In this document: positions 11,099 to 32,077 of the stretch, one piece after another | How the letters are laid out: each line of letters starts with the position of its first letter | How positions within the stretch are numbered: position 1 is the stretch's first letter | Assembly (NCBI GenBank): GCA_963722795.1 | Contig: CAVROD010000004.1 | Location: 267,768-331,767 of the forward strand | Source: an uncultured Actinomycetes bacterium | Lineage (GTDB): Bacteria > Actinomycetota > UBA4738 > HRBIN12 | Length of the DNA: 64,000 nucleotides | Reading direction: 5' to 3' | Position numbers and translations under genes: made by a program | Notes under the pieces: generated by a model | Seen by the model: the letters and a program-made list of their open reading frames with translations, nothing else | Told to the model about the DNA's origin: nothing | The model's database searches: none

Positions 11099-11404
11099 AG
11101 GTCGCTCTTGGGGTCGAAGAAGCCGCCGGCGGGGCGTGCGTGCGCGTGCCAATGGTCGGGGATGCGCCGCCGTTCGGGGTCGACGTAGTAGCCCTCGTCG
11201 CCGTAGCGCTCGGCGGCCACCCGCTCCAGATGTGCGAGCAGTTGGGCTTCGTGCTGCGGGGTCGGGCAGACCGTGCGTGCGCCAGACGACCATCGGCGTG
11301 CGACACACGACGCATTCCGCGATCCAGCAGTCCTCGTCGTCGTGCAGCCAGTCGGTCATGCGCTCCGCCGTGCAGAGCATGCAGTCCTGGGGGTCCTCAG
11401 ACAT
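11064..11404 (-). pseudogene. small Cys-rich protein with HIT-like His triad (one frame break)
   Basis: Manual translation gives MSEDPQDCMLCTAERMTDWLHDDEDCWIAECVVCRTPMVVWRTHGLPDP, then after a 1-nt shift QHEAQLLAHLERVAAERYGDEGYYVDPERRRIPDHWHAHARPAGGFFDPKSDLYGTFDEP*. Confidence 0.4.
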
Positions 11405-16471: not shown

Positions 16472-17322
16472 GCGTGCAGCCGATGCACCGTTCCCGCCTC
16501 TCCGCGATCCCCGAGGACCTCCGCAAGCTCGGTGCGTTCATCCGGCGCGACTTCCTCGTGCTCATCAGCTACCGGATCGGGTTCCTCTCGGACTGGTTCA
16601 ACCTGCTCGTGCAGGTGCTGATCCTGTACTTCGTCGGCAAGCTGATCGACCCGTCGACCCTGCCGGAGTACGGAGGGACGCAGCCGAGCTACGTCGAGTT
16701 CGCCGCAGTGGGCATCGCCGTCGGATCGCTCGTGCAGGCCAACCTCGCCAGGGTGATGGCGGCCATCAGAGGCGAGCAGCTGATGGGCACCCTCGAGATG
16801 GTGTTCCTCACCCCGACCGCGCCCACCACCGTGCTGTTGGGCTCGGTCGTCTACGACCTGATCTACGTGCCGGTGCGCACGGTGATCTTCCTCGTGCTGT
16901 TGACGGTCCTGCTCGACCTCGGGTTCTCGTTCACGGCCATCGGGCCGTTGGTGATCGTGCTGTTGGCGTTCATCCCGTTCCTGTGGGGGCTCAGCTTGAT
17001 CGGCGCCGGCAGCATGCTCACGTTCCGTCGCGGCGGCGGCATCGCGGGCATCGTCGGGCTCGTGCTCGTGGTGGCATCAGGCAGCTACTTCCCGATCACC
17101 GTGCTGCCGACATGGCTGCAGTCCTTCGCCGAGAACAACCCGGTCACCGTGGCCGTCGACGGTGTGCGAGAAGCCTTGCTCGGGACCGCGAATGCCTCCG
17201 ACGCGATCAACGACGCGCTCACGATCCTTCCCTACGCGGTCGTCTCGCTCGCCGTCGGCCTCGTCGCGCTCCGCGTCGCGCTGCGTCGTGAGCGCCAGCG
17301 GGGCACGCTCGGCACGTACTGA
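16468..17322 (+). CDS. ABC-2 type transporter permease
   Basis: GTGA overlap with the ATPase gene. Six hydrophobic segments. FIRRDFLVLISYRIGFLSDWF is a typical ABC-2 N-terminus. Confidence 0.8.
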   Translation: MSVQPMHRSRLSAIPEDLRKLGAFIRRDFLVLISYRIGFLSDWFNLLVQVLILYFVGKLIDPSTLPEYGGTQPSYVEFAAVGIAVGSLVQANLARVMAAIRGEQLMGTLEMVFLTPTAPTTVLLGSVVYDLIYVPVRTVIFLVLLTVLLDLGFSFTAIGPLVIVLLAFIPFLWGLSLIGAGSMLTFRRGGGIAGIVGLVLVVASGSYFPITVLPTWLQSFAENNPVTVAVDGVREALLGTANASDAINDALTILPYAVVSLAVGLVALRVALRRERQRGTLGTY

Positions 17323-17371
17323 GGGCCTGCGCACGACCGGGCCGCACGGCGATCAGACGAGGAGCGACCGC

Positions 17372-18226
17372 ATGTGGGAGGACACGTTCGACCGGGCGGC
17401 TCCGGACTACGACGCTCCCGAGTTGTCGTTCCTCGACGACGCGGCGGCGGCCCTGGCCGAGGCGGCCGGCATCCAGGCGGGCGAGCGGGTGCTCGACGTC
17501 GCGACCGGCACCGGCAAGCTGGCGGCCTCGGCGGCCCGCGAGGTGGGAGAACGCGGTTTCGTGGCGGGCCTCGACGTCTCGGGCGGCATGTTGCGGCAGG
17601 CGCGGCGGAACGTGGCGAGCCCGAGAGCGTCGTTCGTGCAAGCCGATGCAGCCCTGCTCCCTCTGCGTGATGGCTCGTTCGATCTCGCGCTGATGGGGTT
17701 CGGCATCTCCTTCCTTCCCGCGCCGATCGCCGCGTTCCGCGATGTGCGTCGAGTGTTGCGGGGGAACGGCCGACTCGGGCTGTCGACCACAGCCCACGAT
17801 TGCTTCGCTCCGTTGCTCGGCGTCTTCCTCGACGCGCTCGAACGAGCCGGCATGCCTCGCCCCCGTCCCTCGCATGAAGCCTGGCGATCCGTCGACCGAC
17901 CCGAGCACCTCGAGCACGTGCTGCGGCGCGCGGGGTTCGCGGAGCGCCGGGTGCGGCGCCTCGAGCTCGGGACGTTCCTGGCGGATCCCCTGGAGTTCTG
18001 GGCGCTCCTGCGAGGGAGCGCCTGGCGTGGCACGATCGACCGGCTCTCGCCGGAGCACCGAGTGCGCGTGCGGGAAGAGCTCGGTGTGGGAGCCGAGAGG
18101 CTCCGGGAGGCGCGAGGCATCCCGCTTCGGACGCCCGTCTTGATCGCGACCGCCACGCGCGGCCGAGTGCCGCTGCGCACGCTGGCCGGGCCGATCGCCG
18201 GCCGGGTGAGGAAGGTCCTCGGTTGA
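17372..18226 (+). CDS. class I SAM-dependent methyltransferase
   Basis: GAGGAG RBS then ATG at 17372. Motif I VLDVATGTGKLA; post-I LDVSGGML; DGSFDLALMGFG. Confidence 0.8.
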   Translation: MWEDTFDRAAPDYDAPELSFLDDAAAALAEAAGIQAGERVLDVATGTGKLAASAAREVGERGFVAGLDVSGGMLRQARRNVASPRASFVQADAALLPLRDGSFDLALMGFGISFLPAPIAAFRDVRRVLRGNGRLGLSTTAHDCFAPLLGVFLDALERAGMPRPRPSHEAWRSVDRPEHLEHVLRRAGFAERRVRRLELGTFLADPLEFWALLRGSAWRGTIDRLSPEHRVRVREELGVGAERLREARGIPLRTPVLIATATRGRVPLRTLAGPIAGRVRKVLG

Positions 18227-19254
18227 GGGCCGCGGGCCGCACGCTCGTGGCGGGCTGGTTCAGCTTCCCCGACACCGGGGCGACGGCGGGCGACCTGATG
18301 GCGATGCAGGTCGTCCGCAGCTGGCTCGACGGTGCGCACATCCCCTACGACGTCGCGCTCGCCCCCAGGTACGGCCACGGCGTCGAGTGGGGCTCGGCCG
18401 ATCCGCAGCGGTACTCGCACGTCGTCTTCGTCTGCGGCCCCTTCTACCGCTCCGACCTGCTTCGCAGGTTCGAGGGGAGCCGCCTCGTGGGCGTCGATCT
18501 GTCGATGGTGGACCCGATCGAGGGATGGAACCCGTTCGACCTGCTGCTCGAGCGAGACAGCACGCAAGCCTCTCGGCCGGATCTCGCGATCGCCGCTCCG
18601 GTCACGCGGGTGCCCGTGGTCGGCGTGTGTCTGTTGCCGCCGGACACCGCGAAGGTCGCGACCGATCGATACCTCGCAGCCGACGAGGCCGTCGCCCGTC
18701 TCCTCGAGCGCCATGACGTTGCGCCGGTCGTGATCGACACCGAGCTGTCGGACGGCGCGATGGACCTCCGCAGCCCTGCGGCGGTCGATTCCCTCGTCGC
18801 CCGCGCCGACGTCGTCGTGTCCACGCGCCTGCACGGGCTCGTCCTGGGTCTTCGCAACGGGGTGCCGGTGCTGGCGATCGATCCCGTTCCCGGGGGTGAG
18901 CGGGTGCGCCGCCAGGCCGAGGCGCTCGGCTGGTCGCCCGTGCTGGGGCCAGATGAGCTGGATGATGCATCGCTCGACCGAGCGTTCGAGCAGTGCCTGT
19001 CACCCGAGGCCCGTGATCGGGCCGCGGCGAGCACGAACGAGGGGCGCGACGCGGTGGCCGAGATCGGGTCCACGCTGGTCGCGGCGATCGCCGACGACGA
19101 CGGCAGTCCCGGGTGGGGAGACGGTCGCCGTCGGGGTGGGTGGACGCTTCCCGAAGGCACGACATCGTCCCTGCAGGCGGCGCCCGGGCGCCTCGGTGGC
19201 GGAGCCCGGGCCGTGCGAGCCGTGCGCAGGCGGCTCGGGAAGGGGTCGAGGTGA
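18223..19254 (+). CDS. polysaccharide pyruvyl transferase family protein
   Basis: TTG start overlaps the upstream stop. GWFSFPDTGATAGDLMA...ADVVVSTRLHGLVLGLRNGVPVLAIDP resembles the PS_pyruv_trans pattern. This is a recollection-based call. Confidence 0.65.
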   Translation: MRAAGRTLVAGWFSFPDTGATAGDLMAMQVVRSWLDGAHIPYDVALAPRYGHGVEWGSADPQRYSHVVFVCGPFYRSDLLRRFEGSRLVGVDLSMVDPIEGWNPFDLLLERDSTQASRPDLAIAAPVTRVPVVGVCLLPPDTAKVATDRYLAADEAVARLLERHDVAPVVIDTELSDGAMDLRSPAAVDSLVARADVVVSTRLHGLVLGLRNGVPVLAIDPVPGGERVRRQAEALGWSPVLGPDELDDASLDRAFEQCLSPEARDRAAASTNEGRDAVAEIGSTLVAAIADDDGSPGWGDGRRRGGWTLPEGTTSSLQAAPGRLGGGARAVRAVRRRLGKGSR

Positions 19255-19928
19255 CGCCCGGCCGTGTGGTCGTGCTCTCGACCCATCTCGACGACGGGGT
19301 GCTGTCGATCGGGGGGTGGATGCATCGGGCGGCGCGCGGTGGCTCCGCCATCACCCTCGTCACCGTGCTCGCGGGCGATCCGAACGACACGAGACCGGGA
19401 AGCGACTGGGATCGCCGTTCGGGATTCTCGACGGTCGGTGAGGCGGCCACCGCCCGACGTGCCGAAGACCGGCGAGCATGCGCGATCCTGGGGCTTCGAA
19501 CCTCGTGGCTGCCGTTCGGCGACATGCTCCAGGGCAGGGGCGCTTCGGACGAGGCTGTCTGGAACGCGCTCGTGCCGCTGCTCGCGAACGCCGACCTCGT
19601 GCTGGGGCCGGGGTTCCCGCTGAGCCATCCCGATCACGCGTGGCTCGCGACGCTGTTGCACGGGGAGGGCGGGAGCCTGCCGACGGGCTTCTATGCCGAG
19701 CAGCCGTATCGTCACCATGGCGGGGGCGCGCTGGGCGATCCGCCGAGCGCGGGGGAGGGGATCCGTTGGGAGCCGGTCCGGTTGTCCCCCCGTGAACGGT
19801 GGGCCAAGTTCCGCGCCGTGCGTGAGTACCGCTCCCAGCTCGCCTTGCTGAGCGACCGCCGGGGGCTCGCCCGGCGGCTGGGTCTCGCCCGCGGCGATGC
19901 AGGGGAGGCGCTCGCATGGGGGCCCTGA
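19251..19928 (+). CDS. PIG-L/LmbE family deacetylase
   Basis: GTGA overlap with the upstream gene. VVVLSTHLDDGVLSIGG and LSHPDHAWL are metal-binding motifs of the family. Confidence 0.75.
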   Translation: MTPGRVVVLSTHLDDGVLSIGGWMHRAARGGSAITLVTVLAGDPNDTRPGSDWDRRSGFSTVGEAATARRAEDRRACAILGLRTSWLPFGDMLQGRGASDEAVWNALVPLLANADLVLGPGFPLSHPDHAWLATLLHGEGGSLPTGFYAEQPYRHHGGGALGDPPSAGEGIRWEPVRLSPRERWAKFRAVREYRSQLALLSDRRGLARRLGLARGDAGEALAWGP

Positions 19929-20620
19929 GCTCGGTCCGCCGCCGGGTCCGCCGCTTCAGGCGCTTGGTCGCGCGGCGACCGCCCGTGGGCCTGGTGCGCT
20001 TCGGCAGCCTGCGCAGGACGACGCCGATCGGCCATGAGTGGGGTGAGGATCGGGGTCTGCCCGTCGACCGGGTTTACATCGACCGATTCATGAACGCCCA
20101 TCGCTCCGACATGCGCGGGCACGTGCTCGAGGTTCAGTACCCGGTGTACACCGGCCGCTTCGGCTCGGCGGTCACGGAGACCGACGTGCTCGACATCCGT
20201 GCGGACAACCCCGCGGCCACGATCGTGGCCGACCTCACCGCGGCCGCCATGGTCCCCGATGACACGTTCGACTGCGTGGTGCTGACACAGACGCTGCACC
20301 TGATCCACGACCACGTGGCGGCGGTTCGAGAGGTACACCGCATGCTGCGCCCTGGCGGGGTGCTGCTGGCGACGGTCCCGGGCATCTCGCCCGTCGTCGA
20401 CACCACCGCGCGGTGGTGCTACACGCCGTTGTCCGTTCGTGAGATCTTCGCCGGCGTGTTCGGGTCCGAGCACATCGATGTCGAGTCGTTCGGCAACGTG
20501 CTCACCGCGACGGCGTTCCTCTACCAGCTGGGGGCGCGGGAACTGCGGGCGGCGGACTATGCCGCGCGCGACCCCGCGTACCCCATGGTGATCGCGGTGC
20601 GGGCGGAGAAAGGGTCGTGA
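19916..20620 (+). CDS. class I SAM-dependent methyltransferase
   Basis: 234 aa. FDCVVLTQTLHLIHD...MLRPGGVLLATVPG (Methyltransf_11-like). It overlaps the upstream gene by 13 nt. Confidence 0.8.
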   Translation: MGALSSVRRRVRRFRRLVARRPPVGLVRFGSLRRTTPIGHEWGEDRGLPVDRVYIDRFMNAHRSDMRGHVLEVQYPVYTGRFGSAVTETDVLDIRADNPAATIVADLTAAAMVPDDTFDCVVLTQTLHLIHDHVAAVREVHRMLRPGGVLLATVPGISPVVDTTARWCYTPLSVREIFAGVFGSEHIDVESFGNVLTATAFLYQLGARELRAADYAARDPAYPMVIAVRAEKGS

Positions 20621-21616
20621 CCGCGATCAGCGTCGTCGTGCCGACGAGGAACCGAGCCCAGGTGCTGGGGTCCTCGCTCGCCTCGATCGCAGCGCAGCGA
20701 GCGGGCGCCGACTTCGAGGTGATCGTCGTCGACAACGCCTCCTCCGACGGCACGACGGATCTGCTCCGTGCATGGACCGCTCGGGACGACCGGTTCCGCC
20801 TCGTACGGGAAGAGCGGCTCGGGCGGAGCTGCGCGATGAACGCCGGGATCTCGGTCGCCGCAGGTTCCCTGCTGTTGTTCACCGACGACGACGTGGAGCT
20901 CGCTCCCGGCTGGGTGGAATCGTTCCGTCGGTTCTTCGCGTCGCACGAAGGCCCTCGTCATCGCCGGAGGGGCGATCGAGCCCGCGCCCCCCGACCTGTC
21001 GTCGTGGCCCTCGTGGTTGTCGCCGGCGTCGCGTTCGGCCGACGGCCCGGGCCTCGACCACGGCGAGGATGAGCGAGCGCTGGCGTCCCACGAGTTCCTG
21101 TGGGGCGCGAGCATGGCGGTGCCCGCCGAGGTCTTCGAACGACTGGGCACCTGGAACGAGACGGTCGGCCGACGAGGAGACCATCGGGGTACCTTCGAGG
21201 ACATCGACTTCCAGCAGCGCCTGCGCGCGGCGGGCGGCTCGGTCTGGTACCTGCCCGACGCTCGGCTGCGCCACCGCGTGCCCACGGCCGAGGTGACGCC
21301 CCGGCGCATCCTCCTGCGGGCGTACCGCAACGGCCGCAACGACGCATGGTTCCCGCCGGGCGGCGAGGCACGTCCGCCGCGGGCGTCGTGGGTGCGGGGG
21401 AGGCCTTCGCGCGGTGGATGGCCGTGACGATCGCCTTCCGTGCTCGCCCCGATGCCGCCGCCTTCGATCGTGCCCGCGATGCCGCCCGGCACGCCGGTCG
21501 GGCCGGCGAGCGGGTGGCGATCGGCCGCCATCGAGCTCGCGCCTTCGTCCAGCGGCTCGCGTGGGCTTTCGCGAGCGCGGATCCTGAGGGTCGCGCCCGA
21601 TCGACCGTCGCGTTAG
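20617..21616 (+). pseudogene. family 2 glycosyltransferase (at least 2 frame breaks; 3' end uncertain)
   Basis: ISVVVPTRNRAQVL...EVIVVDNASSDGT...LLLFTDDDV. It continues in other frames (WGASMAVPAEVFERLGTWNE...FEDIDFQQRL...WYLPDARLRHR). Confidence 0.65.
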
Positions 21617-22561
21617 GGCAGGCAGGTCGCCACGATGAGCTCGACCAGGTCGTCGAGGTCATCGAAGCGAAGATCGCGGTGCAGGTTCCAGGAGGGGACG
21701 CTCGCCGCCAGCCCCGCGACACCGTGGAAGCATCGCGATCGGTCCTCGTGCGTCGGCAGGTGCAGGCTGAGCGCCCACAGGTCGGGGATCGTGTCGGCCG
21801 GCTGCCGGCGCTCGAGCACCGGGGAGCCCTCGCCTCGGCGCAGGAACACGATGCCTGCGATCGGCACCGGGTCGCCGGTGCCTCGCCGCGGTGGCGTCGA
21901 GGGCGACGTGCACCCGGTCGGGCTCCTCGGCGATGACCTCCACGTCGGGCACGTCGATCGAGCCGTGCACGTCGGGGCGGAGCCGGAGCAACGCGGGTCC
22001 GGGGAAGATCGAGGGATGCGATGTCGGCCGGATGCGGGCCAGATCCTCCGAGAGCATGCGGTAGCCCGCCCGATGGAAGGCCGCCGCGGTCGTGGTCTTG
22101 CCGTGGCGCCCCGGAGCGGGGAAGAGGATCGCCCGTCCGCCTACCTCGACGGCGGCGCTATGCAGCGAGATGTCGCCGTGGGCGAGATAGCTCGTCGCCG
22201 TCGGGATGCCCCACAGCCGCTGCTCGCGCCTGACCGAGTGCCCTCGATCGGAGAGCCCGATCGAGGGTACCGACGGATCGGCGACGAACCAGCCTTCGCG
22301 GTCGGTCCAGAACGCGAACCGTCCGTCGTCGGCGTAGAGCGAGGCACGGAAGTCCCGTCCTGCTCGCAGCGGCCACTCCAGCATCGCGTCGCCCACCGGA
22401 GCCGGATCGGCGTCGAGCTGGTGCACGTCGAGGGGATCCGTGATGCCTCCGAGGTCACGCAGGAACCGCCACGCGATCGGTGAGCGCACGGCATAGCCGT
22501 GGATCGCGCCCAGCGGGGCGATGCGCTCGTCGTCGGTGCTCTCGGCCCCGGTCGCGGTCAC
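21613..22561 (-). pseudogene. HPr kinase-related P-loop kinase (one frame break near 21870)
   Basis: LHSAAVEVGGRAILFPAPGRHGKTTTAAAFHRAGYRMLSEDL resembles HprK C-terminal domains. GTG start overlaps the oxygenase stop (GTGA at 22558-22561). The tail IAGIVFLRRGEGSPVLERR... lies in the 21613..21867 frame. Confidence 0.7.
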
Positions 22562-23268
22562 CGAGCGCGGTGGTACCAGCCACCGATCGAGACACGGGCC
22601 GTGCCCTGCGACGCACTCTCGACCGGCAAGACCTCGTGCACCGATTGAGCCTGCACGTCGAACATCACGATCGAGTTGAAGTCGGCATGTACCTGGTGGG
22701 TGGTGCCGGCGCCGTCGATCATCGCGAGCGTGCCGCCGTACTCCGGCCGCCAATCCGGGTTCAGGTAGAGCACGAGCGCGAGCCGGCGGTCCTTGTTGTC
22801 GTCGGTGTGATGCCGCAGGAAGTCGCCTGTTCGCATCGAGTGCACGCCGAAGTCGTCGCTCGCCGTGAGCGGCAACCCGCTCACCGCGGCGAAGAACGAG
22901 CGGAAGGCGTCGGTCTGCAGCGCCTGTCGGAACTGCAGGTACGTCAGGGCGTTCGGGCTGAACTGGTGCTCGGCGGGCACCCCGTGCAGCCTGGAGAGCC
23001 GGAAGAACCGGTCGTCCTCGGTCGCACCCTCGTACTGCGACTCGGAGACGCCCCCCTCGACCGAGAAGATGCCGTACTCGGTCTCGTAGTCGGCCTCGTC
23101 GAGCAGGAACCGTGCGAGGTGTTCGGCCTTCTCCTGCACGAGCAGGTCGTGCACGACGAGCATGCGCGCAGGATGGGAGTCGAGCGATGTTCGATACGAC
23201 GCGAGTGCGTCGTCGTCGAGGTGCTGGGGCTGGAACCAGGGCTCGAGGGCGTTGCGATCGATCGTCAT
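22558..23268 (-). CDS. 2OG-Fe(II) oxygenase, prolyl-4-hydroxylase-like
   Basis: Starts MTIDRNALEPW. Facial triad candidates FLRHHTDDN (HxD) and SVHEVLPV. RLALVLYLNPDW...GGTL is typical of 2OG-FeII_Oxy_3. Confidence 0.75.
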   Translation of the reverse strand: MTIDRNALEPWFQPQHLDDDALASYRTSLDSHPARMLVVHDLLVQEKAEHLARFLLDEADYETEYGIFSVEGGVSESQYEGATEDDRFFRLSRLHGVPAEHQFSPNALTYLQFRQALQTDAFRSFFAAVSGLPLTASDDFGVHSMRTGDFLRHHTDDNKDRRLALVLYLNPDWRPEYGGTLAMIDGAGTTHQVHADFNSIVMFDVQAQSVHEVLPVESASQGTARVSIGGWYHRAR

Positions 23269-23403: not shown

Positions 23404-23706
23404 ATGATCGATGATGCCACCGTCGTCCGGCGCAACCCGACCGTCGAGTACAGGAGCTTGGGCGCCGACGACGGGGGAGGCGTGCTGCTGCACGTCGGCA
23501 CCGGCGCCTATCACGGGTTGAACGAGGTCGGCGCCGCCGTCTGGGCCCTGCTCGAGCCCGAGCAGGGAGTCGCCTTCGGCTCGATCGTCGAAGGGGTGCG
23601 CGGCCAGGTCGAGGAGGCGCCGGAGAACCTCGCCGAGGAGATCGGCGAGTTCCTCGAGGACCTCTCGACCCGCGACCTTGTGAGCCTGGGCGCGACGGAA
23701 GGCTGA
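23404..23706 (+). CDS. PqqD-family protein (RiPP recognition element, lasso B1-like)
   Basis: 100 aa: MIDDATVVRRNPTVEYRSLGADDGGGVLLHVGTGAYHGLNEVGAAVWALLEP... is the canonical PqqD pattern. An alternative ATG exists at 23350. Confidence 0.8.
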   Translation: MIDDATVVRRNPTVEYRSLGADDGGGVLLHVGTGAYHGLNEVGAAVWALLEPEQGVAFGSIVEGVRGQVEEAPENLAEEIGEFLEDLSTRDLVSLGATEG

Positions 23707-23721: not shown

Positions 23722-24159
23722 CTACGAGTATCGAGCGATCTGCTCGTGCCGCCCCTTGCCGGGCGGTGGTCCCACGTCGACCCCGCCGATCTCGATCCAT
23801 GCATGCGCGTCCTTGTCGCGGGGCTCGCGCGGCAGGCCGATCACCAGCTCGACCCCGTCGCCCTGCTCCCGCAGGAGCCGGAACAGCACCAGCGACGTGA
23901 ACAGGCATCTGGCCTTGAGCGGGCCGAATCGCAGCACCATGTACACGAGCTGTCCGAGGCGTCGTGGGTGCGCGTAGAGGGTGCGACCGGGGCGGGCCGG
24001 CGCTCGCAACGTGGCCACCACGGCGGGGAGCGGTCGCGTGCGAACAGCGCGAGCCACCAACACGTATGACGCGAGGATGTGCGGCGCGAGCCTGATCTTG
24101 TCCAGCAGACGCAGTGGGCGGGGCACTCCGCGGAGCTCGGGCTGGGGGCGTGTGCTCAT
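23722..24159 (-). CDS. lasso peptide B2-like transglutaminase-fold cysteine protease
   Basis: 145 aa from MSTRPQPEL. KARCLFTSLVLFRLLREQG...DKDAHAWIEIGGVDV gives the Cys/His catalytic context typical of B2 proteins. Confidence 0.8.
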   Translation of the reverse strand: MSTRPQPELRGVPRPLRLLDKIRLAPHILASYVLVARAVRTRPLPAVVATLRAPARPGRTLYAHPRRLGQLVYMVLRFGPLKARCLFTSLVLFRLLREQGDGVELVIGLPREPRDKDAHAWIEIGGVDVGPPPGKGRHEQIARYS

Positions 24160-24208
24160 GGGCGGGTGGAGGTCACCTGGCGCCTCAGAGCTCGTTGCCC
24201 TCGCACGC

Positions 24209-24241
24209 AAGAACGCCCGCGCCGAGGGCGCGGGCGTTCTT
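24209..24241 (-). terminator. perfect hairpin between the precursor and B2 genes (attenuator/terminator candidate)
   Basis: aagaacgcccgcgcc-gag-ggcgcgggcgttctt: 15-bp stem, 3-nt loop, 27 nt downstream of the precursor stop. There is no clear U tract. Confidence 0.5.
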
Positions 24242-24268
24242 GTCGAAACGCGTTTCGATCAGAAGCGG

Positions 24269-24415
24269 TTAGCTTCCGACTTCCTCGTGCGACAGCTCGC
24301 CGTACTCGTCCGGCTTCGCAGGCGGCTTGCCGCCCTTCTGCTGTCCACCAGGGGTGGTGAACGTGTGGTCGGAGATAGGACCGAAGTCCGTCACCTGGGG
24401 CTTCTCGTACTGCAT
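24269..24415 (-). CDS. RiPP precursor peptide with lasso-type leader (48 aa; below the ORF-track cutoff)
   Basis: Manual translation: MQYEKPQVTDFGPISDHTFTTPGGQQKGGKPPAKPDEYGELSHEEVGS*. GGAGG lies 6 nt upstream of the ATG. The leader fits YxxPxL/V...G.....T-x. It sits between the NTase and B2 genes on the same strand. Confidence 0.7.
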   Translation of the reverse strand: MQYEKPQVTDFGPISDHTFTTPGGQQKGGKPPAKPDEYGELSHEEVGS

Positions 24416-24547
24416 ACCCAACCTCCATGGTCGTCGGGGTCGGCCGACTATAACCCAGAATGACCCACACTGTGTAGGCCGAATGGGCTAATCCTGCAAG
24501 AAATTTCACCTGCGTCGGATGACCCGGCGGGCACATGCATCCGGGCG

Positions 24548-25570
24548 TCATCTCCCGACTTTCCCGACTTTCCGGGCTTTGCGGGCTGCTCGGATCGCTG
24601 GTATGAGTTTCCATGCAACCCAGAACGGGCGAGCGATGTAGGCGAGCGCAAGGCCGAGTCTACCTCGTCGGGCGAGGGGCGACCACGCGCGCATGTGTGC
24701 GGGCGGTGGCCACACCTTGCGGGCCGCCACTCGAAGTCCTTCGGTGGGCGTCGCGTCATGCATCATCCAGTCCACCCCCACCGCGAGCGGCGGCGGTTGC
24801 TGCAGCCTGAGCGCGACCTCCGGGCTCATCCGATCGGTGAGCTCCAGCTCGTCTGCCAAGAGCCCTCCGGCCTCGATGCGGCGAAGGCCCGCGGCGAACG
24901 CTTCCAGGGCGTCGAGCTGGGTCGCGAGCTCGGCCGTGTGGCGCCAATCCTCGACGGGGATCCTGGCGACGGCCAGCTCCAAGTCCCTGATGGCCTTGCC
25001 CCCGCGCCCTTCGCGCTTGCCGCCGTCCTTCGCGGCGTGCAGCACCAGCACCAAGGCCCGAGCGACCGGGTCCAAGACCGGCACCTGACCGCCGGCGAGG
25101 GGCATGGTTTGTGTCCGAGCCTCGAGTGTGTCCCACACCCGGTCGGGGGGCGCCTTGATACCGAGGAACGTGGTGTGCAGGTCGACGGACACGTTGTCGG
25201 CGCGCCAGAGTGGGAAGCCGTAACGCGGTCGGTCACGCACGACGGATTCGAACCCGCGGCGCACGAATCCGGCGCCGGCCAGGACCGATTCCGCCCCCGC
25301 CGCATCCCCGGGAGGGATCAGCAAGTCGCAGTCGGCGTAGGTGCGCTCATCGGGGTCGTCGTACAGCCACCGGGCATGGCTCGCCCCTTTGAGCAGGATG
25401 CTCGGGATACCGGCGTCGCGCAGGCGGGGGATGACCTCGACCACCGCTCGGTCGACCGACATCGATCGGACCGCCGCCCGCATCGCCGCGGGGATCGGCG
25501 TGGTGACGTCCGACCCGAGGTCGGTCACGACCGGTCGGACGCTGGTGTGCTCGCTTCGGTCTCTCGCCAT
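24548..25570 (-). CDS. nucleotidyltransferase family protein (NTP_transf_5-like)
   Basis: 340 aa. VEVIPRLRDAGIPSILLKGASHARWLYDDPDERTYADCDLLIPP matches my recollection of the uncharacterised-nucleotidyltransferase family seen in lasso/kinase clusters. Confidence 0.7.
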   Translation of the reverse strand: MARDRSEHTSVRPVVTDLGSDVTTPIPAAMRAAVRSMSVDRAVVEVIPRLRDAGIPSILLKGASHARWLYDDPDERTYADCDLLIPPGDAAGAESVLAGAGFVRRGFESVVRDRPRYGFPLWRADNVSVDLHTTFLGIKAPPDRVWDTLEARTQTMPLAGGQVPVLDPVARALVLVLHAAKDGGKREGRGGKAIRDLELAVARIPVEDWRHTAELATQLDALEAFAAGLRRIEAGGLLADELELTDRMSPEVALRLQQPPPLAVGVDWMMHDATPTEGLRVAARKVWPPPAHMRAWSPLARRGRLGLALAYIARPFWVAWKLIPAIRAARKARKVGKVGR

Positions 25571-27428: not shown

Positions 27429-28274
27429 TCAGGGTTCGTAGCCGTAGGCCCGCAACCGCTCGTCATTCACTCGGGCGCTGAAGCGCTCGGTGAGCTCATC
27501 GTCGAACCGCTCGCGCCAGCCGCCGATCGCTCCCTTGCGGAAGGTCGGGCTGGCGTCAGAGAAGAGCTCTCCGCAGACCCGCTCGACGAGCGCGGTGTCG
27601 ACGTCGAGTCCCAGGTGACGGAAGATGCGCTCGACCGCGTCGCGCTGACGAGCGGCGTCGCCGCCGCCGTTCGGTCCGATCAGGTCCTCGAAACGGACCG
27701 TCTCGGCCGGGCCGCGGAGCCAGCCGACGTACCGCTCGAGCCGGTCCCCGATCGACGGGAGGCCGGTGGCAGGGTCGCCCTCGATCGCCACGAGCACCCG
27801 GCCTCGCAGGTCGGTCTGGCCGGCGAAGGCTTGGTGGAACGGGTGATCGGGCTTCTGCACCGCGTAATGCGCCTGTGAGAGCACGATGTCGCGTGGGTCG
27901 CGCGTGAGGAACAGCGCTCGCACCCCGCCGGCCTCGATCACCGCCGGATAGTCGGGCTCGAAGGGCAGGTGCGCCACGACGACCTGGCCGGGAGCGAGGG
28001 TGTCGAGCAGCCCCGAGAGTCCCCGCCATCGCTCGAGCGCCTCGGGCCAGACGGTGGCGAGCATCTTGCGATGCAGCCGCGGATGCAGGCACACAGCACG
28101 CTCGAGCAGATGCGTGCCGGCCTTCGGGAGCGAGATCGACAGGACCCGCGGCGCCCCGCGATCGGTGAGCCGGTGGGCGAGCCTGGACGGGGTGAGGCCG
28201 AACCGCTGCAGTGTCCAGGTGTTCAGTGGCAGACTCGCCGCGCGCGCTCGGATCGAGGAGCCGAAGCCGCTCAC
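27429..28274 (-). CDS. sulfotransferase domain protein (PKxGT type)
   Basis: GTG start overlaps the upstream stop (GTGA at 28271-28274). 5'-PSB-like SLPKAGTHLL. LFLTRDPRDIVLSQ (3'-PB region). C-terminal FRKGAIGGWRERF. Confidence 0.8.
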   Translation of the reverse strand: MSGFGSSIRARAASLPLNTWTLQRFGLTPSRLAHRLTDRGAPRVLSISLPKAGTHLLERAVCLHPRLHRKMLATVWPEALERWRGLSGLLDTLAPGQVVVAHLPFEPDYPAVIEAGGVRALFLTRDPRDIVLSQAHYAVQKPDHPFHQAFAGQTDLRGRVLVAIEGDPATGLPSIGDRLERYVGWLRGPAETVRFEDLIGPNGGGDAARQRDAVERIFRHLGLDVDTALVERVCGELFSDASPTFRKGAIGGWRERFDDELTERFSARVNDERLRAYGYEP

Positions 28275-29203
28275 GAGGTGGCCTTCCACCGATAGCCGTA
28301 GCGACCCAGCCAGGGGGCCGTCAGGGTGGACGCGATGAGCTGCGTGCTGCGGGGCGCCCGGCGCCAGGCGTCGTCGAGTCGGATCTCGACGTCGCCCTCG
28401 GAGAAGCGGCTGCGGTTGCCCGAGACGGCGTGGCTGACGGCGAGCCGCACGGTGCGATCGTCGACGAAAGGCAGTCGGTCGGACGGAGCGCCCACGAACC
28501 GACAGATGGCTTCGACGACCTGTTTCGGGTGCTCGGCGAAGTCCTCGTAGCGCAGCAGCATGGTGCGGGCGGCCGGCAACCGGCGCCGCACGGAGTCGCC
28601 GAGCACGTTGGTCGAGACCCAACGTCCCGACGTGCGCACCGGCCCGGGCGAATACTCTCGCGGACCATGCGCATCCTCGCCCGCCGGCCGCCCGCGTTCC
28701 CAGGAGAACGCGACGCCGCGGGGGTCGCGCACGAGGTGCAGGATCGAAAGGTCGATCTCGTCGAGTCGTTCCAAGATCGCGGCGGCCGCGGGGGTCTTCG
28801 ACGAATCGACGATCACGTCGGCGCCGGAAGCCCGTCGGACCTCGGGGTAGAGACGACGAAGCAGGTCGACGTAGCGGTCGAGGTCGGCTCGTCCGGTCAC
28901 CGGCCATCGGTCGGTGCGCAGTAGCCGCGGGGTGTGGAGCATGCGCGCCTGAGCGAGCTGCCACCGGTACACCTCGTTCGGGTCGTCGGGGCTGCCGACC
29001 TCGGTCAGCACGGCCGACCAGAAGGGGCACGACGCGATCTCCTGGCCGCATCCGCACCGGAACCCACGCGCCATGCCGCGCCACAGCATGTGGATCTCGC
29101 CGGCTGCGAAGAACCCCGGGGCGCTGCCGAGCACGTTCTCGAGGATCGTCGATCCGCACCGTGTGGTGCCCAGGATGAAGAGCACCTTCACTCGATCGCT
29201 CAT
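28271..29203 (-). CDS. sulfotransferase family protein (RSGST-type P-loop with CGCG-x7-C motif), paralogue A
   Basis: Starts MSDRVKVLFILGTTRCGSTILENVLG. FRCGCGQEIASCPFW. HLVRDPRGVAFS. Ends PWLGRYGY. Confidence 0.8.
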   Translation of the reverse strand: MSDRVKVLFILGTTRCGSTILENVLGSAPGFFAAGEIHMLWRGMARGFRCGCGQEIASCPFWSAVLTEVGSPDDPNEVYRWQLAQARMLHTPRLLRTDRWPVTGRADLDRYVDLLRRLYPEVRRASGADVIVDSSKTPAAAAILERLDEIDLSILHLVRDPRGVAFSWERGRPAGEDAHGPREYSPGPVRTSGRWVSTNVLGDSVRRRLPAARTMLLRYEDFAEHPKQVVEAICRFVGAPSDRLPFVDDRTVRLAVSHAVSGNRSRFSEGDVEIRLDDAWRRAPRSTQLIASTLTAPWLGRYGYRWKATS

Positions 29204-29331
29204 GTCGACGTCGAACTCCCGGTTCTCGTGGGGGGCAGGCGAGCGGTCGGGCGACACGCGTCCGGATCCGCCGGGTACCGACGATAGCATCGGCACGGAC
29301 GCCCACGTCCTGACCTCGTAGCATCGGCGAC

Positions 29332-30309
29332 ATGGTGGGACGCCCCGAGGGACACGCCGAGCCATATCCCTCGCGGGTCAAGGTCGTCGCGATCGTCGGC
29401 TACACGCGAAGTGGCAGCACGCTGCTCGACTCGATCCTCGGCCAGATCCCAGGCTTCTTCTCCACCGGAGAGCTGCACTACATCTGGGAACGCGGGCTGA
29501 TCGATCGGAGGCGATGTGGGTGCGGGGTGCCGATCCCCGAGTGCGAGGTCTGGTCGGACGTGCTCGAGCGGGCGTTCGATGACTCGCCTCCGGATCCTCG
29601 CCAGGTGATGCGGTGGCAGGACGGGGCGGTGCGTACCCGGCACACCTGGGGTCTGCTCAAAGGCGGCGTGCGCCCGGTGGACCGAGCCGCCCTCGAGGCG
29701 TACCTGGCGGTTGCCGGCCCCCTCTACGGTGCGATCGCCGGTTCCACGGGGGCGCGCGTGATCGTGGACTCGTCCAAGCGTGCCTCCGATGGCGCCGTGC
29801 TTCGCCTGCTGGACGAGATCGATCCCTACGTGGTGCACCTCGTCCGCGATCCCCGGGCGGTGATCCACTCCTGGCGTCGTCGGAAGGTCGAGCTCGACAG
29901 CGACCAGCCGAGCGAGATGCCCCGTCAGGGCCGGGCCCGCACCGCGGCAGAATGGTCGCAGTCCAACATCGCAGCCGACGCGCTGCGCAAGCGGATGGGT
30001 CCGGGTCGGTCGATGCTGCTGCGGTACGAAGATCTGATGCGCGCTCCGAGGACCGCGGTGGAGGCGATCGCCCGCATGGTCGGCGAGGGCGACGCCGCGC
30101 TCCCGTTCGACGACGAGCACAGCGTGCGGCTCGGACCCAATCACACCGTGGGCGGGAATCCCGCCAGGTTCTCGGCCGGAGCGACCGAGTTGCGCGCCGA
30201 CGACGAGTGGCAGCGGCGGATGCCTGCCGCGGCGCGCATCGGGGCCACCGCCCTCACCGCGCCGCTGCTCCCACGCTACGGCTATCCCGTGATCGGGGCG
30301 GGCCGATGA
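29332..30309 (+). CDS. sulfotransferase family protein (RSGST-type with CGCG-x7-C motif), paralogue B
   Basis: VKVVAIVGYTRSGSTLLDSILG. RRCGCGVPIPECEVW. HLVRDPRAVIHS. PLLPRYGY. Divergent from paralogue A across a 128-bp gap. Confidence 0.8.
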   Translation: MVGRPEGHAEPYPSRVKVVAIVGYTRSGSTLLDSILGQIPGFFSTGELHYIWERGLIDRRRCGCGVPIPECEVWSDVLERAFDDSPPDPRQVMRWQDGAVRTRHTWGLLKGGVRPVDRAALEAYLAVAGPLYGAIAGSTGARVIVDSSKRASDGAVLRLLDEIDPYVVHLVRDPRAVIHSWRRRKVELDSDQPSEMPRQGRARTAAEWSQSNIAADALRKRMGPGRSMLLRYEDLMRAPRTAVEAIARMVGEGDAALPFDDEHSVRLGPNHTVGGNPARFSAGATELRADDEWQRRMPAAARIGATALTAPLLPRYGYPVIGAGR

Positions 30310-31157
30310 GCCTGCCTGCGACGCTGCGGCGGGCGAGATTCCGCAGCCGCCTGCTACGGGCTCCCGTCGTCGTGATGCGCCATCGCCATCTCGACGCTGC
30401 CGACGCCCTGCTCGTGAGCTATCCGCGGTCGGGCACGACCTGGCTGCGGTTCCTGCTGACGCAGGCGTTGACCGGCGAGGTGGCCGACTTCCATCCCGAC
30501 CGCCAGGCGGTGCGCTATGTGGGCGATCATCGTGGCGCACCGCGCATCGTGCCCGGTCCGGGGCGGCTGATCTACTCGCACGAACGCAGGTCCGCGGGCG
30601 ATCGCACGGTGCTGTACATCGCGCGTGACCCGCGCGCGGTCGCGATCTCGGAGTGGCGCTGGCTGCAGCGGCGAGGGCTTGCCGATCGGGACTTCGATTC
30701 GTTCCTCGGGCGGTTCGTCCGCGGCCGGTCGAACCCATGGGGACGATGGGACGAGCACGTGCGGTGGTGGCTCGACACGTCCGAGCCCGCACGGTCCGGG
30801 CGGGTGCGTTTCACGCGCTTCGAGGACCTCCGCTCGCAGACGTCGGCGACCCTCGCCGAGCTGGTCACCTTCCTGGGCGCCGACGCGACCCCCGGTCGGA
30901 TCGAGGGCGCCGTTCGTGACAACTCTCTGGAACGCATGCAGGAGAAGGAATCCGACGCACCGGACCGCGCCTTCGCGAAGGGCGTTCGACGCGACGTCAA
31001 GTTCGTGCGGACCGGCTCGGTCGGGGGGTGGCGTGAGGCGCTGTCGGCGGAGCAGCAACACCACATCGGCGACGCGTTCGGTCCCGTGATGCAGCGGCTC
31101 GGTTATGACCCCGCGCCCACGGTCTCCGAGGCCGGCGGCTCCGAACGCAGCGGGTAG
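30306..31157 (+). CDS. sulfotransferase domain protein (Sulfotransfer_1-like)
   Basis: ATGA overlap with the upstream gene. LVSYPRSGTTWLRFLL (PAPS 5'-phosphate loop). YIARDPRAVAISEW. RTGSVGGWREAL. Confidence 0.85.
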   Translation: MSLPATLRRARFRSRLLRAPVVVMRHRHLDAADALLVSYPRSGTTWLRFLLTQALTGEVADFHPDRQAVRYVGDHRGAPRIVPGPGRLIYSHERRSAGDRTVLYIARDPRAVAISEWRWLQRRGLADRDFDSFLGRFVRGRSNPWGRWDEHVRWWLDTSEPARSGRVRFTRFEDLRSQTSATLAELVTFLGADATPGRIEGAVRDNSLERMQEKESDAPDRAFAKGVRRDVKFVRTGSVGGWREALSAEQQHHIGDAFGPVMQRLGYDPAPTVSEAGGSERSG

Positions 31158-32077
31158 CCGTATCGGTGGAGCCACGGTGAGCACATCGCGGTCACGAGAC
31201 GCCGTTGTCCCGCGCGCGACGCCGTGCGCCACGCCTCGTCGGAGCGGATCGCGACCGAGCCGGTCGCGAACCTGCTGCGGTTGCCCCACACGTTGTGGTT
31301 CGCGCCCAGCTCGACGACGCCGGGCCCGGTGAACGGAGACGGGTGTGGTTCACCGCCGTCGAGGCCGAGGATGGTCTCCGCCGTCTCGCGCGGTTCGGAG
31401 GCGAACCGCTCGTAGGGCACCAGGGTCCACTCGCTGCCATAGCGCCGCCGGACCCGCTCGGTGAGCAGGTTCACGCTGACCCACCGCAGGGAGCTCTCGA
31501 TGGTGCCGCGGCGGTGCATGGTCTCGCCGCCACGGTGGACGTCGAGCGTCGGCTTCTCCCGGCCCTGGGAGTAGGCGACCGCTCGCGGGTCGCGCACCAG
31601 GTGCACGAGCCGGGCGTGCAGACCGTCGAGCCCGGGAAGCAGCGCAGCATCGGCCGGCGTCTTCGAGGAGTCCACGATCGTGCGCGCGCCGGTCACACGG
31701 GCGATCGATGCATACAGCTGCGTGAGCAACTCGCGGTAGCGGTCGAGGTCGGGCCTGCCGGTGGGGCCGGTCAGGGGGAGGCCGAGCGATCGGCGGGTAT
31801 GGGCCACACGAGCCTCCCCGAGTTGCCACCGACGAACGGTGTGTGGATCGCCGTCCCAGACGCTCGTGGCCCGGAGCTCCTCGAGAACGCGGGACCAGAC
31901 CGGACAGGCGGCCACGGTCTTCCCGCAGCCACATCCGGTCTCGCGGACCAGCGCCTGCCAGAGCAGATGGAGCTCGCCGGTGGAGAACACGCCGTCGTAG
32001 GCGCCCAGCACGTTGCCGAGCAGCGTCGATCCCGACCGGCCGAACCCGGCGATGTAGATCACCTCGACGGTGCTCAT
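31103..32077 (-). CDS. sulfotransferase family protein (RSGST-type with CGCG-x7-C motif), paralogue C
   Basis: MSTVEVIYIAGFGRSGSTLLGNVLG. TGCGCGKTVAACPVW. HLVRDPRAVAYS. PWLHRYGY. The start overlaps the GT4 stop (ATGA). Confidence 0.8.
   Translation of the reverse strand: MSTVEVIYIAGFGRSGSTLLGNVLGAYDGVFSTGELHLLWQALVRETGCGCGKTVAACPVWSRVLEELRATSVWDGDPHTVRRWQLGEARVAHTRRSLGLPLTGPTGRPDLDRYRELLTQLYASIARVTGARTIVDSSKTPADAALLPGLDGLHARLVHLVRDPRAVAYSQGREKPTLDVHRGGETMHRRGTIESSLRWVSVNLLTERVRRRYGSEWTLVPYERFASEPRETAETILGLDGGEPHPSPFTGPGVVELGANHNVWGNRSRFATGSVAIRSDEAWRTASRAGQRRLVTAMCSPWLHRYGYPLRSEPPASETVGAGS

Follow-up and report, generated by a model that had tools for sequence, protein, structure and literature searches.

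A conserved lasso-like peptide precursor with a lysine in place of the acidic ring-closing residue of lasso peptides

A small conserved gene on the minus strand at 24269-24415 of the window, the 64,000-nt stretch of contig CAVROD010000004.1 analysed here, encodes a 48-aa peptide with the leader of a lasso peptide but with a lysine where lasso peptides need an acidic ring-closing residue. This peptide belongs to a broad family (99 clusters at 50% identity, 147 distinct cores) found in soil bacteria of the Actinomycetota and Acidobacteriota, whose conserved core feature is a Lys located 8–10 residues before an invariant Asp in a D-x-[F/H]-G-E-x-S motif, which points to an undescribed way of cyclising or decorating such peptides. 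The gene translates exactly as given in the first-pass annotation (MQYEKPQVTDFGPISDHTFTTPGGQQKGGKPPAKPDEYGELSHEEVGS*), and the observation reported there, i.e. a lasso leader followed by a core devoid of any Asp or Glu at positions 7–9, is confirmed. The interpretation offered alongside it is only partly supported: the leader assignment holds up and an otherwise cyclised peptide reusing lasso machinery is the option that the evidence favours, while most of the proposed substrate–enzyme pairings are not supported by conservation. The features considered here, with related loci designated by L numbers, are as follows:

24269..24415, minus strand: precursor peptide gene A, with leader M1-F19 and predicted core T20-S48 (core numbering: P3, K8, D17, E21, S23)
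24422..24426, minus strand: Shine-Dalgarno GGAGG, 6 nt before the ATG
24447..24476, minus strand: promoter-like site TACACA-18-TATAGT upstream of A
24208..24242, minus strand: 16-bp GC-rich hairpin in the 110-nt A-B2 spacer, a likely terminator/attenuator that would set the A:enzyme ratio
23722..24159, minus strand: B2 leader peptidase (transglutaminase-like Cys protease), 145 aa, start taken from the orthologue
23404..23706, plus strand: B1 / PqqD-type RiPP recognition element, 100 aa, convergent with B2
22558..23268, minus strand: 2OG/Fe(II) oxygenase of the protein prolyl-hydroxylase type, 236 aa
21616..22561, minus strand: HprK-like peptide kinase, disrupted by a 1-nt insertion near 21898 that puts the C-terminal ~94 aa out of frame
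24548..25570, minus strand: NTP_transf_5 nucleotidyltransferase (PsmN/LppN type), immediately upstream of A
13675..15465, plus strand: lasso-cyclase homologue (Asn-synthetase fold), 596 aa
15137..17322, plus strand: ABC-2 type exporter, ATPase followed by membrane subunit (ORF limits; the true starts are probably further downstream)
17162..21620, plus strand: candidate tailoring block of methyltransferase, pyruvyl-transferase-like, PIG-L deacetylase, methyltransferase and GT2 (the GT2 frameshifted twice)
12071..13678, plus strand: Wzz/BY-kinase-type polysaccharide co-polymerase, its stop overlapping the start of the cyclase homologue
27429..32077: five sulfotransferase genes, given as context and probably not part of the conserved peptide system

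Several lines of evidence indicate that gene A is real. In addition to the ribosome-binding site and a TAA stop, a perfect 16-bp stem starts 27 nt after the stop and folds at -41.8 kcal/mol (z = -3.5), with 0 of 200 shuffled sequences folding as well, although no U-tract follows it and a search for known RNA elements returned only sub-threshold Rfam leader hits caused by the hairpin itself. A consensus scan identified one sigma-70-like site upstream where 0.1 was expected, which is not proof of function. GC content by codon position (0.64/0.44/0.82) is typical of coding sequence in this 69% GC window. The identical protein occurs on 30 public contigs, with 7 further clusters at 68–85% identity, and the gene shows 7 synonymous and 0 non-synonymous changes against a relative with 89% nucleotide identity (L001), as well as a dN/dS of about 0.10 against L041. 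The description of the gene as unannotated in the first-pass annotation is not quite right, since public sources already hold the identical sequence as “hypothetical protein”. The other neighbours named there (a P4H-like oxygenase, five sulfotransferases, a kinase, and a nucleotidyltransferase) are all present, although the kinase carries the insertion noted above relative to its intact orthologues in L001/L005, and both the B1/PqqD gene and the distal cyclase homologue had been missed.

The leader is a genuine lasso leader, in which Y3, P6, V8, G12, and T18 fit YxxPxL-x3-G-x5-T-x, with P6, G12, and T18 invariant in 30 diverse family members. The only PDB match of the family profile is the TbiA-alpha lasso leader bound to its B1 (5v1v), which aligns over Y, P, L, G, and T. 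Standard annotation does not see the family, however, as the NCBIfam model lasso_leader_L3 gives only 13.3 bits against a cut-off of 19, and only 1 of 10 relatives passes it. B2 was identified by Pfam Transglut_core3 (1e-14) and passes the NCBIfam lasso_biosyn_B2 model (NF033537, 47.4 bits against a cut-off of 33). B1 was assigned from its translation and from a 97%-identical orthologue carrying PF05402 (PqqD), and its best NCBIfam hits are lasso PqqD chaperones at 24–31 bits, below cut-off. Alternative cleavage after Thr-Pro, which would yield a GGQQKGG core, was rejected because it still provides no acceptor and because Thr18/Phe19 is the conserved -2/-1 pair.

Core positions 7–9 are Q-K-G here, and the same holds in all 8 close clusters, which share G-G-Q-x-K-G-G. 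A family profile search retrieved 99 representatives at E <= 1e-3, and among 96 cores, Lys is at positions 7–9 in 64 and Asp/Glu in only 22, while position 1 is hypervariable, with 17 residue types including Pro, Asp, Glu, and Lys, unlike lasso position 1. Of 123 distinct cores with D-x3/4-E-x-[SCT], 115 have a Lys 8–10 residues before that Asp (shuffles give 32.6 +/- 4.7, maximum 50 of 2000). Among the 30 of these cores in which the Asp lies at position 20 or later, 27 keep this spacing, but only 5 have Lys at 7–9 from the N-terminus and only 3 have an acid there. The Lys is never replaced by Arg (123/123), the Asp column is always Asp, never Glu or Asn, and Lys at this place is invariant across the 30 diverse members. 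Importantly, however, the spacing statistic in cores with several Lys depends on which one is chosen, with the first Lys giving sd 2.8 for N-terminus-to-K and 4.0 for K-to-D, and the last Lys giving 4.2 and 1.4, and 32 of the 123 cores do have Asp/Glu at 7–9, usually next to the Lys, and could make ordinary rings. A genome-collection scan with a narrow peptide alignment found only 2 loci, and a 2285-aa protein with 17 matches to the core (P0018) was discarded as a false positive, being a eukaryotic EGF-repeat protein whose score is summed over Cys/Gly/Pro-rich repeats.

In this window the cyclase homologue and ABC-2 exporter lie about 9 kb from the peptide gene, whereas in relatives they directly follow it. 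The cyclase homologue (Pfam Asn_synthase and GATase_7) lacks the N-terminal catalytic glutaminase Cys and retains an intact SGGxDS PP-loop, and scores 144 bits against the NCBIfam lasso cyclase model (NF033535, cut-off 525) and 152 bits against Asn synthase, i.e. below cut-off in both cases, with no close match among solved structures (only the TsnB9-like 7ylz at 1e-8). It is 43–47% identical over its full length to the gene directly downstream of A in L007, L008, L010, L013, and L016, and is under purifying selection in the acceptor-less sub-family (dN/dS 0.16 against L017). Of 67 evaluable loci found with the cyclase homologue, 60 hold a family peptide, 40 of these directly upstream on the same strand and 6 divergent. 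The exporter (Pfam ABC_tran and ABC2_membrane) follows the cyclase homologue in L007, L010, L013, L017, and L018.

Other partners recur as well: the kinase is present in 22 of 26 loci of 8 kb or more, ABC, PqqD, and B2 genes recur, and L013 has the full set. The kinase matches NCBIfam HprK_rel_A (7.5e-11; 41.6–46.4 bits, below cut-off) and is 42–51% identical to kinases in L007, L010, and L013. The nucleotidyltransferase (PF14907, 4.5e-28), for which no close match was found among solved structures, occupies the same position in L001-6, L007, L041, L013, and a further related contig (P0007). The oxygenase (Pfam 2OG-FeII_Oxy_3/4), whose nearest solved relatives are OGFOD1 (3.6e-14), PPHD, and Tpa1, recurs next to a GT2 in L043, L044/45, and L076, with a GT2 beside the oxygenase in 4 other loci in total. 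The tailoring block, assigned by Pfam, has the same content and order in L007, with PIG-L and methyltransferase genes also in L011/12, and the Wzz/BY-kinase neighbour (Pfam Wzz and AAA_31) is shared with L010, L017, L018, L041, and the P0007 contig. No priming phosphoglycosyltransferase was found among the ORFs scanned, which did not include every ORF.

Conservation argues against the modifications proposed in the first-pass annotation. For sulfation of the Tyr in DEYGE, this Tyr is His in 6 of 8 close clusters, Phe in one, and Trp in one cluster member. The five sulfotransferases (Pfam Sulfotransfer_1/3) have no homologues in any non-identical related locus and are lineage-specific neighbours in a Wzy/Wzz/glycosyltransferase polysaccharide locus, and no APS kinase is present in the window, although L010 has one. 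The KPPAKP segment is disfavoured as the oxygenase substrate, since oxygenase homologues at 44–50% identity sit beside family peptides that lack this segment, one of which has only the conserved Pro3. As for phosphorylation of the C-terminal Ser, this peptide does end in Ser, but only 32 of 96 family cores do, whereas Ser23 in GE-x-S is at least 90% conserved, and known kinases of this type also use an internal Ser3.

The closest known systems are phosphorylated lasso peptides of the paeninodin, pseudomycoidin, and BsfA type, which share split B1/B2, an Asn-synthetase-type C, an HprK-like kinase, a PF14907 nucleotidyltransferase, an exporter, the YxxPxL...T-x leader logic, and a frequent location inside polysaccharide loci; Pro-Gly at core positions 3–4 is likewise found in the AGPG of paeninodin. 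Those cores close Ala1-Asp9 or Gly1-Asp8, however, whereas here the acceptor window holds an invariant Lys and no acid, the K-x8-D-x-F-G-E-x-S scaffold has no counterpart there, the exporter is of ABC-2 type, and the cyclase, B1, and kinase fall below NCBIfam lasso/HprK cut-offs. In addition, paeninodins are described as restricted to Bacillota (Popov et al.). Linear polyphosphorylated peptides (LPP; Popov et al. 2026, PMC13381572) similarly combine an RRE, HprK-like kinase, and NTP transferase acting on a YxxP leader inside capsule/EPS loci, but use an SpI/SipW-like signal peptidase, have no B2 and no cyclase, and have a YxxPxVLxHQxIxFETxxS leader and highly variable C-termini, while the present family has B2, a cyclase homologue, and a conserved core, and no signal-peptidase family appeared among the ORFs scanned at 12–37 kb. 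Canonical class II lasso peptides with split B (e.g. TbiA, fusilassin) share the leader motif, a B1 wHTH/PqqD, a B2 protease, and an ATP-dependent Asn-synthetase-like enzyme, but here there is no Asp/Glu at 7–9, position 1 is unconstrained, and the core is more conserved than the leader across phyla, whereas lasso cores are normally hypervariable. The NCBIfam “HPr-rel-A system” provides best or near-best hits for the kinase (TIGR04352, HprK-related kinase A) and one of the hits for B1 (TIGR04353, PqqD family peptide chaperone), with the same kinase–chaperone pairing, but scores are far below cut-off (41–46 against 200 bits and 19 against 35 bits), and no paper in the literature searched mentions this system. 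Searches of open-access papers on PF14907 and lasso peptides, on lasso peptides with a TPGG motif, and on lysine isopeptides formed by lasso cyclases likewise found no description of this family.

Taken together, this suggests that the gene is the precursor of an undescribed “lysine-core” branch of the kinase/nucleotidyltransferase (paeninodin-type) lasso-like RiPPs, embedded in a cell-envelope polysaccharide locus. The reality of the gene, its leader type, the conservation of its core, and its genomic association with the cyclase homologue are established by the analysis, and it is well supported from sequence that B1 binds the leader, that B2 cleaves after Phe19, and that the released core TTPGGQQKGG... 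(calculated monoisotopic mass of 2979.421 Da) cannot form the canonical ring between the N-terminus and an Asp/Glu at 7–9. The chemistry that follows is inferred. In our tentative model, which falls short of an even likelihood, the cyclase homologue would adenylate Asp17 and the epsilon-amine of Lys8 would attack it, yielding a 10-residue side-chain-to-side-chain macrolactam with a free 7-residue N-terminal arm and a 12-residue acidic tail. By analogy with paeninodin, pseudomycoidin, LPP, and BsfA, for which the kinase and nucleotidyltransferase chemistry has literature precedents, the kinase would phosphorylate a Ser on the leader-bound precursor, with Ser23 as the conserved candidate, and the NTP_transf_5 enzyme would then add sugar to the phosphate, while the oxygenase and GT2 may hydroxylate and glycosylate Pro3, and the ABC-2 pump would export the product. 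The Lys-Asp link rests on conservation and spacing only, without chemical evidence, and the fixed K-x8-D-x-F-G-E-x-S block could equally be a binding epitope for the kinase or nucleotidyltransferase, or a metal site, since many members have C-x3-C-H-x-D. All characterised lasso cyclases use the alpha-amine, and the model gives B2 cleavage no chemical role. The proposed crosslink would be comparable in kind to the Lys-Asp/Glu side-chain macrolactams that an ATP-dependent enzyme makes on leader-bound peptides in graspetides and microviridins, but these use ATP-grasp ligases (acyl-phosphate chemistry), and no ATP-grasp domain appeared in any ORF scanned in the window or in L009, L010, or L013, the candidate enzyme here being an adenylating Asn-synthetase/lasso-cyclase homologue.

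Among alternative explanations, the one that survives best, although we consider it unlikely, is that the mature peptide stays linear and is only phosphorylated, glycosylated, or hydroxylated, as in LPP. The Asn-synthetase homologue would then perform a different amide-forming reaction, for instance coupling Lys8 or the new N-terminus to an external carboxylate, such as a uronic or pyruvylated sugar of the neighbouring polysaccharide pathway, or activating Asp17 for an external amine. LPP provides a precedent for linear products made with the same kinase/NTase/RRE set inside capsule loci, every informative locus has glycan genes beside the peptide system (Wzz/BY-kinase, GT2, GT4, Wzx, PIG-L, and pyruvyl transferase), and the invariant Lys and Asp would fit external coupling sites just as well. 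However, LPP clusters lack both a cyclase and B2, which are conserved here, the tight A-to-cyclase adjacency (46 of 67 loci) and fixed K-to-D spacing are more simply explained by an intramolecular reaction, and without a glutaminase Cys the enzyme is not a classical amidotransferase.

It is also possible, but improbable, that the locus is a decaying or non-functional copy in this particular genome, in which the peptide gene survives but the pathway no longer yields the normal product of the family. Relative to intact orthologues at 89% nucleotide identity, there are single-base insertions in the kinase (about 21898) and GT2 (about 20950, plus a second frame change at 21370-21418), such that this particular strain may not make the fully decorated product, and the NTase-A-B2 segment has been moved about 9 kb away from the cyclase compared with L007, L041, L016, and the P0007 contig. 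Yet A, B1, B2, NTase, oxygenase, and cyclase are all intact, A and the cyclase show the selection signatures given above, L017 and L018 share the rearranged Wzz-to-cyclase junction, so that this layout is inherited and stable, and the indels could be assembly errors. More doubtful still is a cyclase that keeps the N-terminal alpha-amine as nucleophile but closes onto Asp17 or Glu21, both at least 90% conserved, in an unprecedentedly large 17–21-residue head-to-side-chain ring, with Lys8 conserved for another reason. This would retain the known chemistry of lasso cyclases and explain why B2 cleavage is kept, but the Asp lies anywhere from position 14 to 32 from the cleavage site, so ring size would vary more than two-fold within one enzyme family, position 1 is hypervariable, and the strict Lys would be left unexplained. 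Finally, an ordinary lasso precursor altered by sequencing error, for which there is nothing beyond the a priori expectation of an acid at 7–9, is refuted by the identical acceptor-less product on 30 independent contigs and by the recurrence of the same architecture in 123 distinct cores.

Every genome-mining rule for lasso peptides, and the textbook definition, requires Asp/Glu at core position 7–9, whereas this family of more than a hundred distinct peptides keeps B1, B2, and a cyclase homologue, the last under purifying selection, while replacing that residue with an invariant Lys. Either the cyclase family has a second chemistry, which would give a new macrocycle type and a new enzyme activity for peptide engineering, or the lasso machinery has been recruited to make a linear, decorated peptide. 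The consistent location inside polysaccharide loci extends to other phyla the unexplained link between kinase/NTase RiPPs and capsule loci recently noted in Bacilli, and the conserved core gives a defined, testable substrate for that question. In the most far-reaching reading, which is unlikely but compatible with the evidence, cyclase homologues of this family would have switched nucleophile from the N-terminal alpha-amine to a Lys side chain, joining it to an Asp 8–10 residues downstream in a new RiPP macrocycle (a side-chain lariat with a free N-terminal arm) widespread in soil Actinomycetota and Acidobacteriota. The conserved peptide would then serve as a ribosomal scaffold carrying phospho-glycan (Ser-P-sugar, via kinase and NTP_transf_5) and possibly hydroxyproline-linked glycan (prolyl hydroxylase and GT2), functionally tied to the surrounding envelope-polysaccharide machinery rather than acting as an antibiotic.

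The open reading frame underlying the observation was recovered exactly as it had been described in the first-pass annotation, at 24415..24269 on the minus strand, and encodes MQYEKPQVTDFGPISDHTFTTPGGQQKGGKPPAKPDEYGELSHEEVGS. A GGAGG motif lies 6 nt before the ATG, the stop codon is TAA, and a 16-bp perfect hairpin starts 27 nt downstream (-41.8 kcal/mol, z -3.5, with 0 of 200 shuffled sequences as stable). A promoter-like TACACA-18-TATAGT site was also identified upstream, GC content by codon position (0.64/0.44/0.82) is coding-like in this 69% GC window, and no Rfam model reached threshold at this site. The gene is real: the identical protein is found on 30 public contigs, where it is listed as "hypothetical protein", and seven further 90%-identity clusters are 68-85% identical to it. 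Against a relative whose DNA is 89% identical, the gene shows 7 synonymous and 0 non-synonymous differences, while against the related locus L041 (related loci are hereafter designated by L-numbers) dN/dS is about 0.10.

The genes surrounding this precursor (A) were annotated based on conserved domains, on gene calls from near-identical contigs, and on translation of the window, and include the following features:

24548-25570, minus strand: NTP_transf_5 nucleotidyltransferase (NTase), directly upstream of A
23722-24159, minus strand: B2 protease, downstream of A after the hairpin, which passes the NCBIfam lasso B2 model
23404-23706, plus strand: convergent 100-aa PqqD/B1 gene, missed in the first-pass annotation and evident from gene calls on near-identical contigs and from the translation
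20617-23268: span of the GT2 glycosyltransferase gene (20617-21620, plus strand) and a 236-aa 2OG oxygenase, whose nearest solved relatives are the protein prolyl hydroxylases OGFOD1, PPHD and Tpa1
21616-22561, minus strand: HprK-like kinase
13675-15465, plus strand: 596-aa Asn-synthetase homologue, about 9 kb away, followed by an ABC-2 exporter

Two methyltransferases, a pyruvyl-transferase-like gene, a PIG-L deacetylase and the GT2 gene lie between the Asn-synthetase homologue and exporter on one side and the kinase on the other. The wider region is a polysaccharide locus, with Wzz/BY-kinase, five sulfotransferases, GT4, Wzy and GT2 genes, including two Wzy_C (O-antigen ligase/polymerase-like) genes at 58937-60592 (minus strand) and 34514-36124 (minus strand), although no priming phosphoglycosyltransferase was found among the ORFs scanned. 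A malectin/right-handed beta-helix protein next to the NTase gene (25772-27385, plus strand) has a paralogue (47-66% identity) at 45344-46949 (minus strand), and weaker malectin/beta-helix homologues occur in five cyclase loci (L019, L022, L023, L046 and L078). Other genes, at 3893-5566 (minus strand), 9907-11493 (plus strand) and 51675-54000, include a 557-aa protein with a weak nitroreductase domain, an AAA_16/STAND-type ATPase, and a BTAD regulator next to an RTX-repeat protein, along with Kelch-repeat ORFs at 39583-40158. Finally, a tRNA-Trp, a NusG with a long Pro/acidic N-terminal extension (411-aa ORF), and two following ORFs that are probably rplK/rplA, together at 60691-63436, mark the window as chromosomal.

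Despite its distance from the precursor, the Asn-synthetase homologue belongs to the peptide system, as it is 43-47% identical over its full length to the gene that directly follows the precursor in L007, L008, L010, L013 and L016. L007, whose peptide is 81% identical to the one studied here, displays the gene order NTase-A-cyclase-ABC-ABC2-MT-PyrT-PIG-L-GT2-kinase, i.e., the gene set of the window in a contiguous order. In L041 and in the contig encoding family member P0007, the order is Wzz/BY-kinase-NTase-A-cyclase, whereas in the window, as in L017 and L018, the NTase-A segment is moved so that Wzz abuts the cyclase homologue. The enzyme lacks the N-terminal glutaminase Cys and keeps the SGGxD PP-loop, and is therefore, as read from its sequence, an adenylating enzyme and not a glutamine amidotransferase. 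Its dN/dS against L017 is 0.16.

To delineate the family, we searched a profile of the eight close peptides against 1.84 billion cluster representatives, which returned 99 proteins at E <= 1e-3, nearly all of them 40-80 aa long. One hit (P0018) is a eukaryotic EGF-repeat protein and a false positive. Members share the leader M-x-Y-E-x-P-x-v-x-D-y-G-S-I-x-x-H-T-F and, unusually for lasso-type peptides, also a core scaffold, x-T/N-P-G-G-x-x-K-G ... D-x-F/H-G-E-x-S. In an alignment of 30 diverse members, the invariant columns are P6, G12 and T18 in the leader along with K27, which corresponds to core Lys8, while Pro3, Asp17, Glu21 and Ser23 are at least 90% conserved. Lys lies at core positions 7-9 in 64 of 96 cores and Asp/Glu in only 22, position 1 takes 17 different residues, and only 32 of 96 cores end in Ser. 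Many sub-families carry K-G-C-x3-C-H-x-D or several Cys after the E-x-S motif, which suggests disulfides or a metal site, whereas the sub-family of the window replaces this with K-P-P-x-K-P. Named genomes place members in a Vicinamibacterales (Acidobacteriota) MAG and in an Actinomycetota MAG.

We next evaluated how consistently the peptide and the cyclase homologue co-occur by scanning metagenome contigs with an alignment of cyclase homologues, which yielded 80 loci at 41-81% identity. Thirteen of these have the gene at the contig edge, and of the other 67, 60 contain a family peptide: 40 directly upstream on the same strand, 6 directly upstream and divergent, and 14 within 2-4 kb. Two of the seven loci without a peptide are L017 and L018, the closest relatives of the window, in which the peptide is expected about 9 kb away. 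Within loci of 8 kb or more, tblastn detected the kinase in 22 of 26, the ABC ATPase in 20, PqqD in 17 and B2 in 11. L013 shows the full set, followed by a Wzx-type flippase and three glycosyltransferases. In L010, which derives from an Actinomycetota MAG, a 462-aa protein directly upstream of the precursor (4542-5930) combines an unassigned N-terminal part of ~280 aa with a C-terminal class I methyltransferase domain, the latter containing an NVPY sequence that resembles the NPPY motif of HemK/PrmC-type methyltransferases.

We then asked what the conserved Lys is positioned against. Pooling all sources gave 147 distinct cores, of which 123 carry D-x3/4-E-x-[S/C/T], and in 115 of these a Lys lies 8-10 residues before that Asp, compared to 32.6 +/- 4.7 when upstream residues were shuffled (maximum of 50 in 2000 trials). 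One caveat is that, in cores with multiple Lys, the spacing variance depends on which Lys is picked. The informative cases are 30 "long" cores in which the Asp is at position 20-49: 27 of these still have the Lys at -8 to -10, but only 5 have a Lys at positions 7-9 from the cleavage site and only 3 have an acid there, so that the Lys tracks the Asp and not the N-terminus. The Lys is never replaced by Arg (123/123), and the Asp column is always Asp, as six apparent exceptions are pattern mis-registers with an Asp one residue over.

Taken together, these data show or strongly support that the gene encodes a lasso-type precursor associated with B1, B2, a cyclase homologue, a kinase, an NTase and an exporter, and that this precursor cannot make the canonical ring. 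The chemistry of the cyclase homologue is, in contrast, inferred. We tentatively favor a model, held with less than even confidence, in which the adenylating cyclase homologue would activate Asp17 and the Lys8 epsilon-amine would close a 10-residue side-chain macrolactam. Three observations support this reading: the pair is strictly K and D, the spacing is fixed while the N-terminal arm varies from 5 to about 20 residues, and position 1 carries no constraint. Of the main rivals, one that is possible although less likely is a linear decorated peptide, with the enzyme coupling Lys or Asp to something external. Local decay of the pathway in this strain is unlikely, but not exclusive of the other readings. 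Compared to intact orthologues, the kinase gene of the window has a 1-nt insertion near 21898 (CTCGACGCC vs CTC-ACGCC in two independent orthologous contigs, L001 and L005), which puts the C-terminal ~94 aa in another frame. The GT2 gene is split over three frame segments relative to the intact 332-aa orthologue in L001, with changes near 20950 and at 21370-21418, one 1-nt insertion having been seen directly in the DNA alignment. These indels may be real frameshifts or assembly errors, and A, B1, B2, NTase, oxygenase and cyclase homologue are intact. A very large alpha-amine-to-Asp ring appears least likely.

Phosphorylation and sugar transfer are inferred by analogy to characterized homologues: PadeK and PsmK act on a C-terminal Ser, BsfK and LppK act on Ser3, and PsmN adds one or two hexoses to the phosphate. 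Conservation points to Ser23 rather than to the C-terminal Ser as the candidate site here, in contrast to the pairing of the terminal Ser with the kinase that was initially hypothesized. The other proposed enzyme-substrate pairings were likewise weighed against conservation, and the initial interpretation is supported only in part. Tyr19, proposed as a target of O-sulfation by the nearby sulfotransferases, is His in most close relatives, so that Tyr O-sulfation is unlikely to be the conserved function. Sulfotransferase homologues are absent from every non-identical related locus, and no APS kinase homologue is found in the window despite its five sulfotransferases, although in L010 an APS kinase (PAPS supply) and a type I phosphodiesterase/nucleotide pyrophosphatase (13022-15069) lie beside the Lys-core peptide cluster. 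The oxygenase, for which the Pro-rich segment had been suggested as substrate, really is prolyl-hydroxylase-like. However, its 44-50% identical homologues occur next to family peptides that lack KPPxKP, including one whose only Pro is the conserved Pro3. In four loci (L043 690-1751, L044 98-1215, L045 1895-3012 and L076 2166-3215), as in the window, the oxygenase and a GT2 homologue form a recurring adjacent gene pair next to family peptides of different core sub-types. If the oxygenase acts on the peptide, Pro3 is the shared candidate, and hydroxyproline formation followed by O-glycosylation is a reasonable hypothesis.

The closest known systems are the kinase/NTase ("paeninodin-type") lasso clusters of Bacillota, Bradymonadales, Sphingomonadales and Acidobacteriaceae, all of which have canonical Ala1-Asp9 or Gly1-Asp8 cores, along with the linear polyphosphorylated peptides of Bacilli, which lack B2 and a cyclase. 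Popov et al. (PMC13381572) note that these clusters sit in capsule loci and that their function is unknown. The present family shares the machinery and the polysaccharide context, but fails the defining core feature of lasso peptides and falls below curated cut-offs for the cyclase, B1, kinase and leader models, and no description of it was found in the open-access literature searched. Overall, the initial observation is confirmed and strengthened by this analysis, and this family, which departs from kinase/NTase lasso clusters in its core, has a realistic chance of representing new cyclization chemistry.
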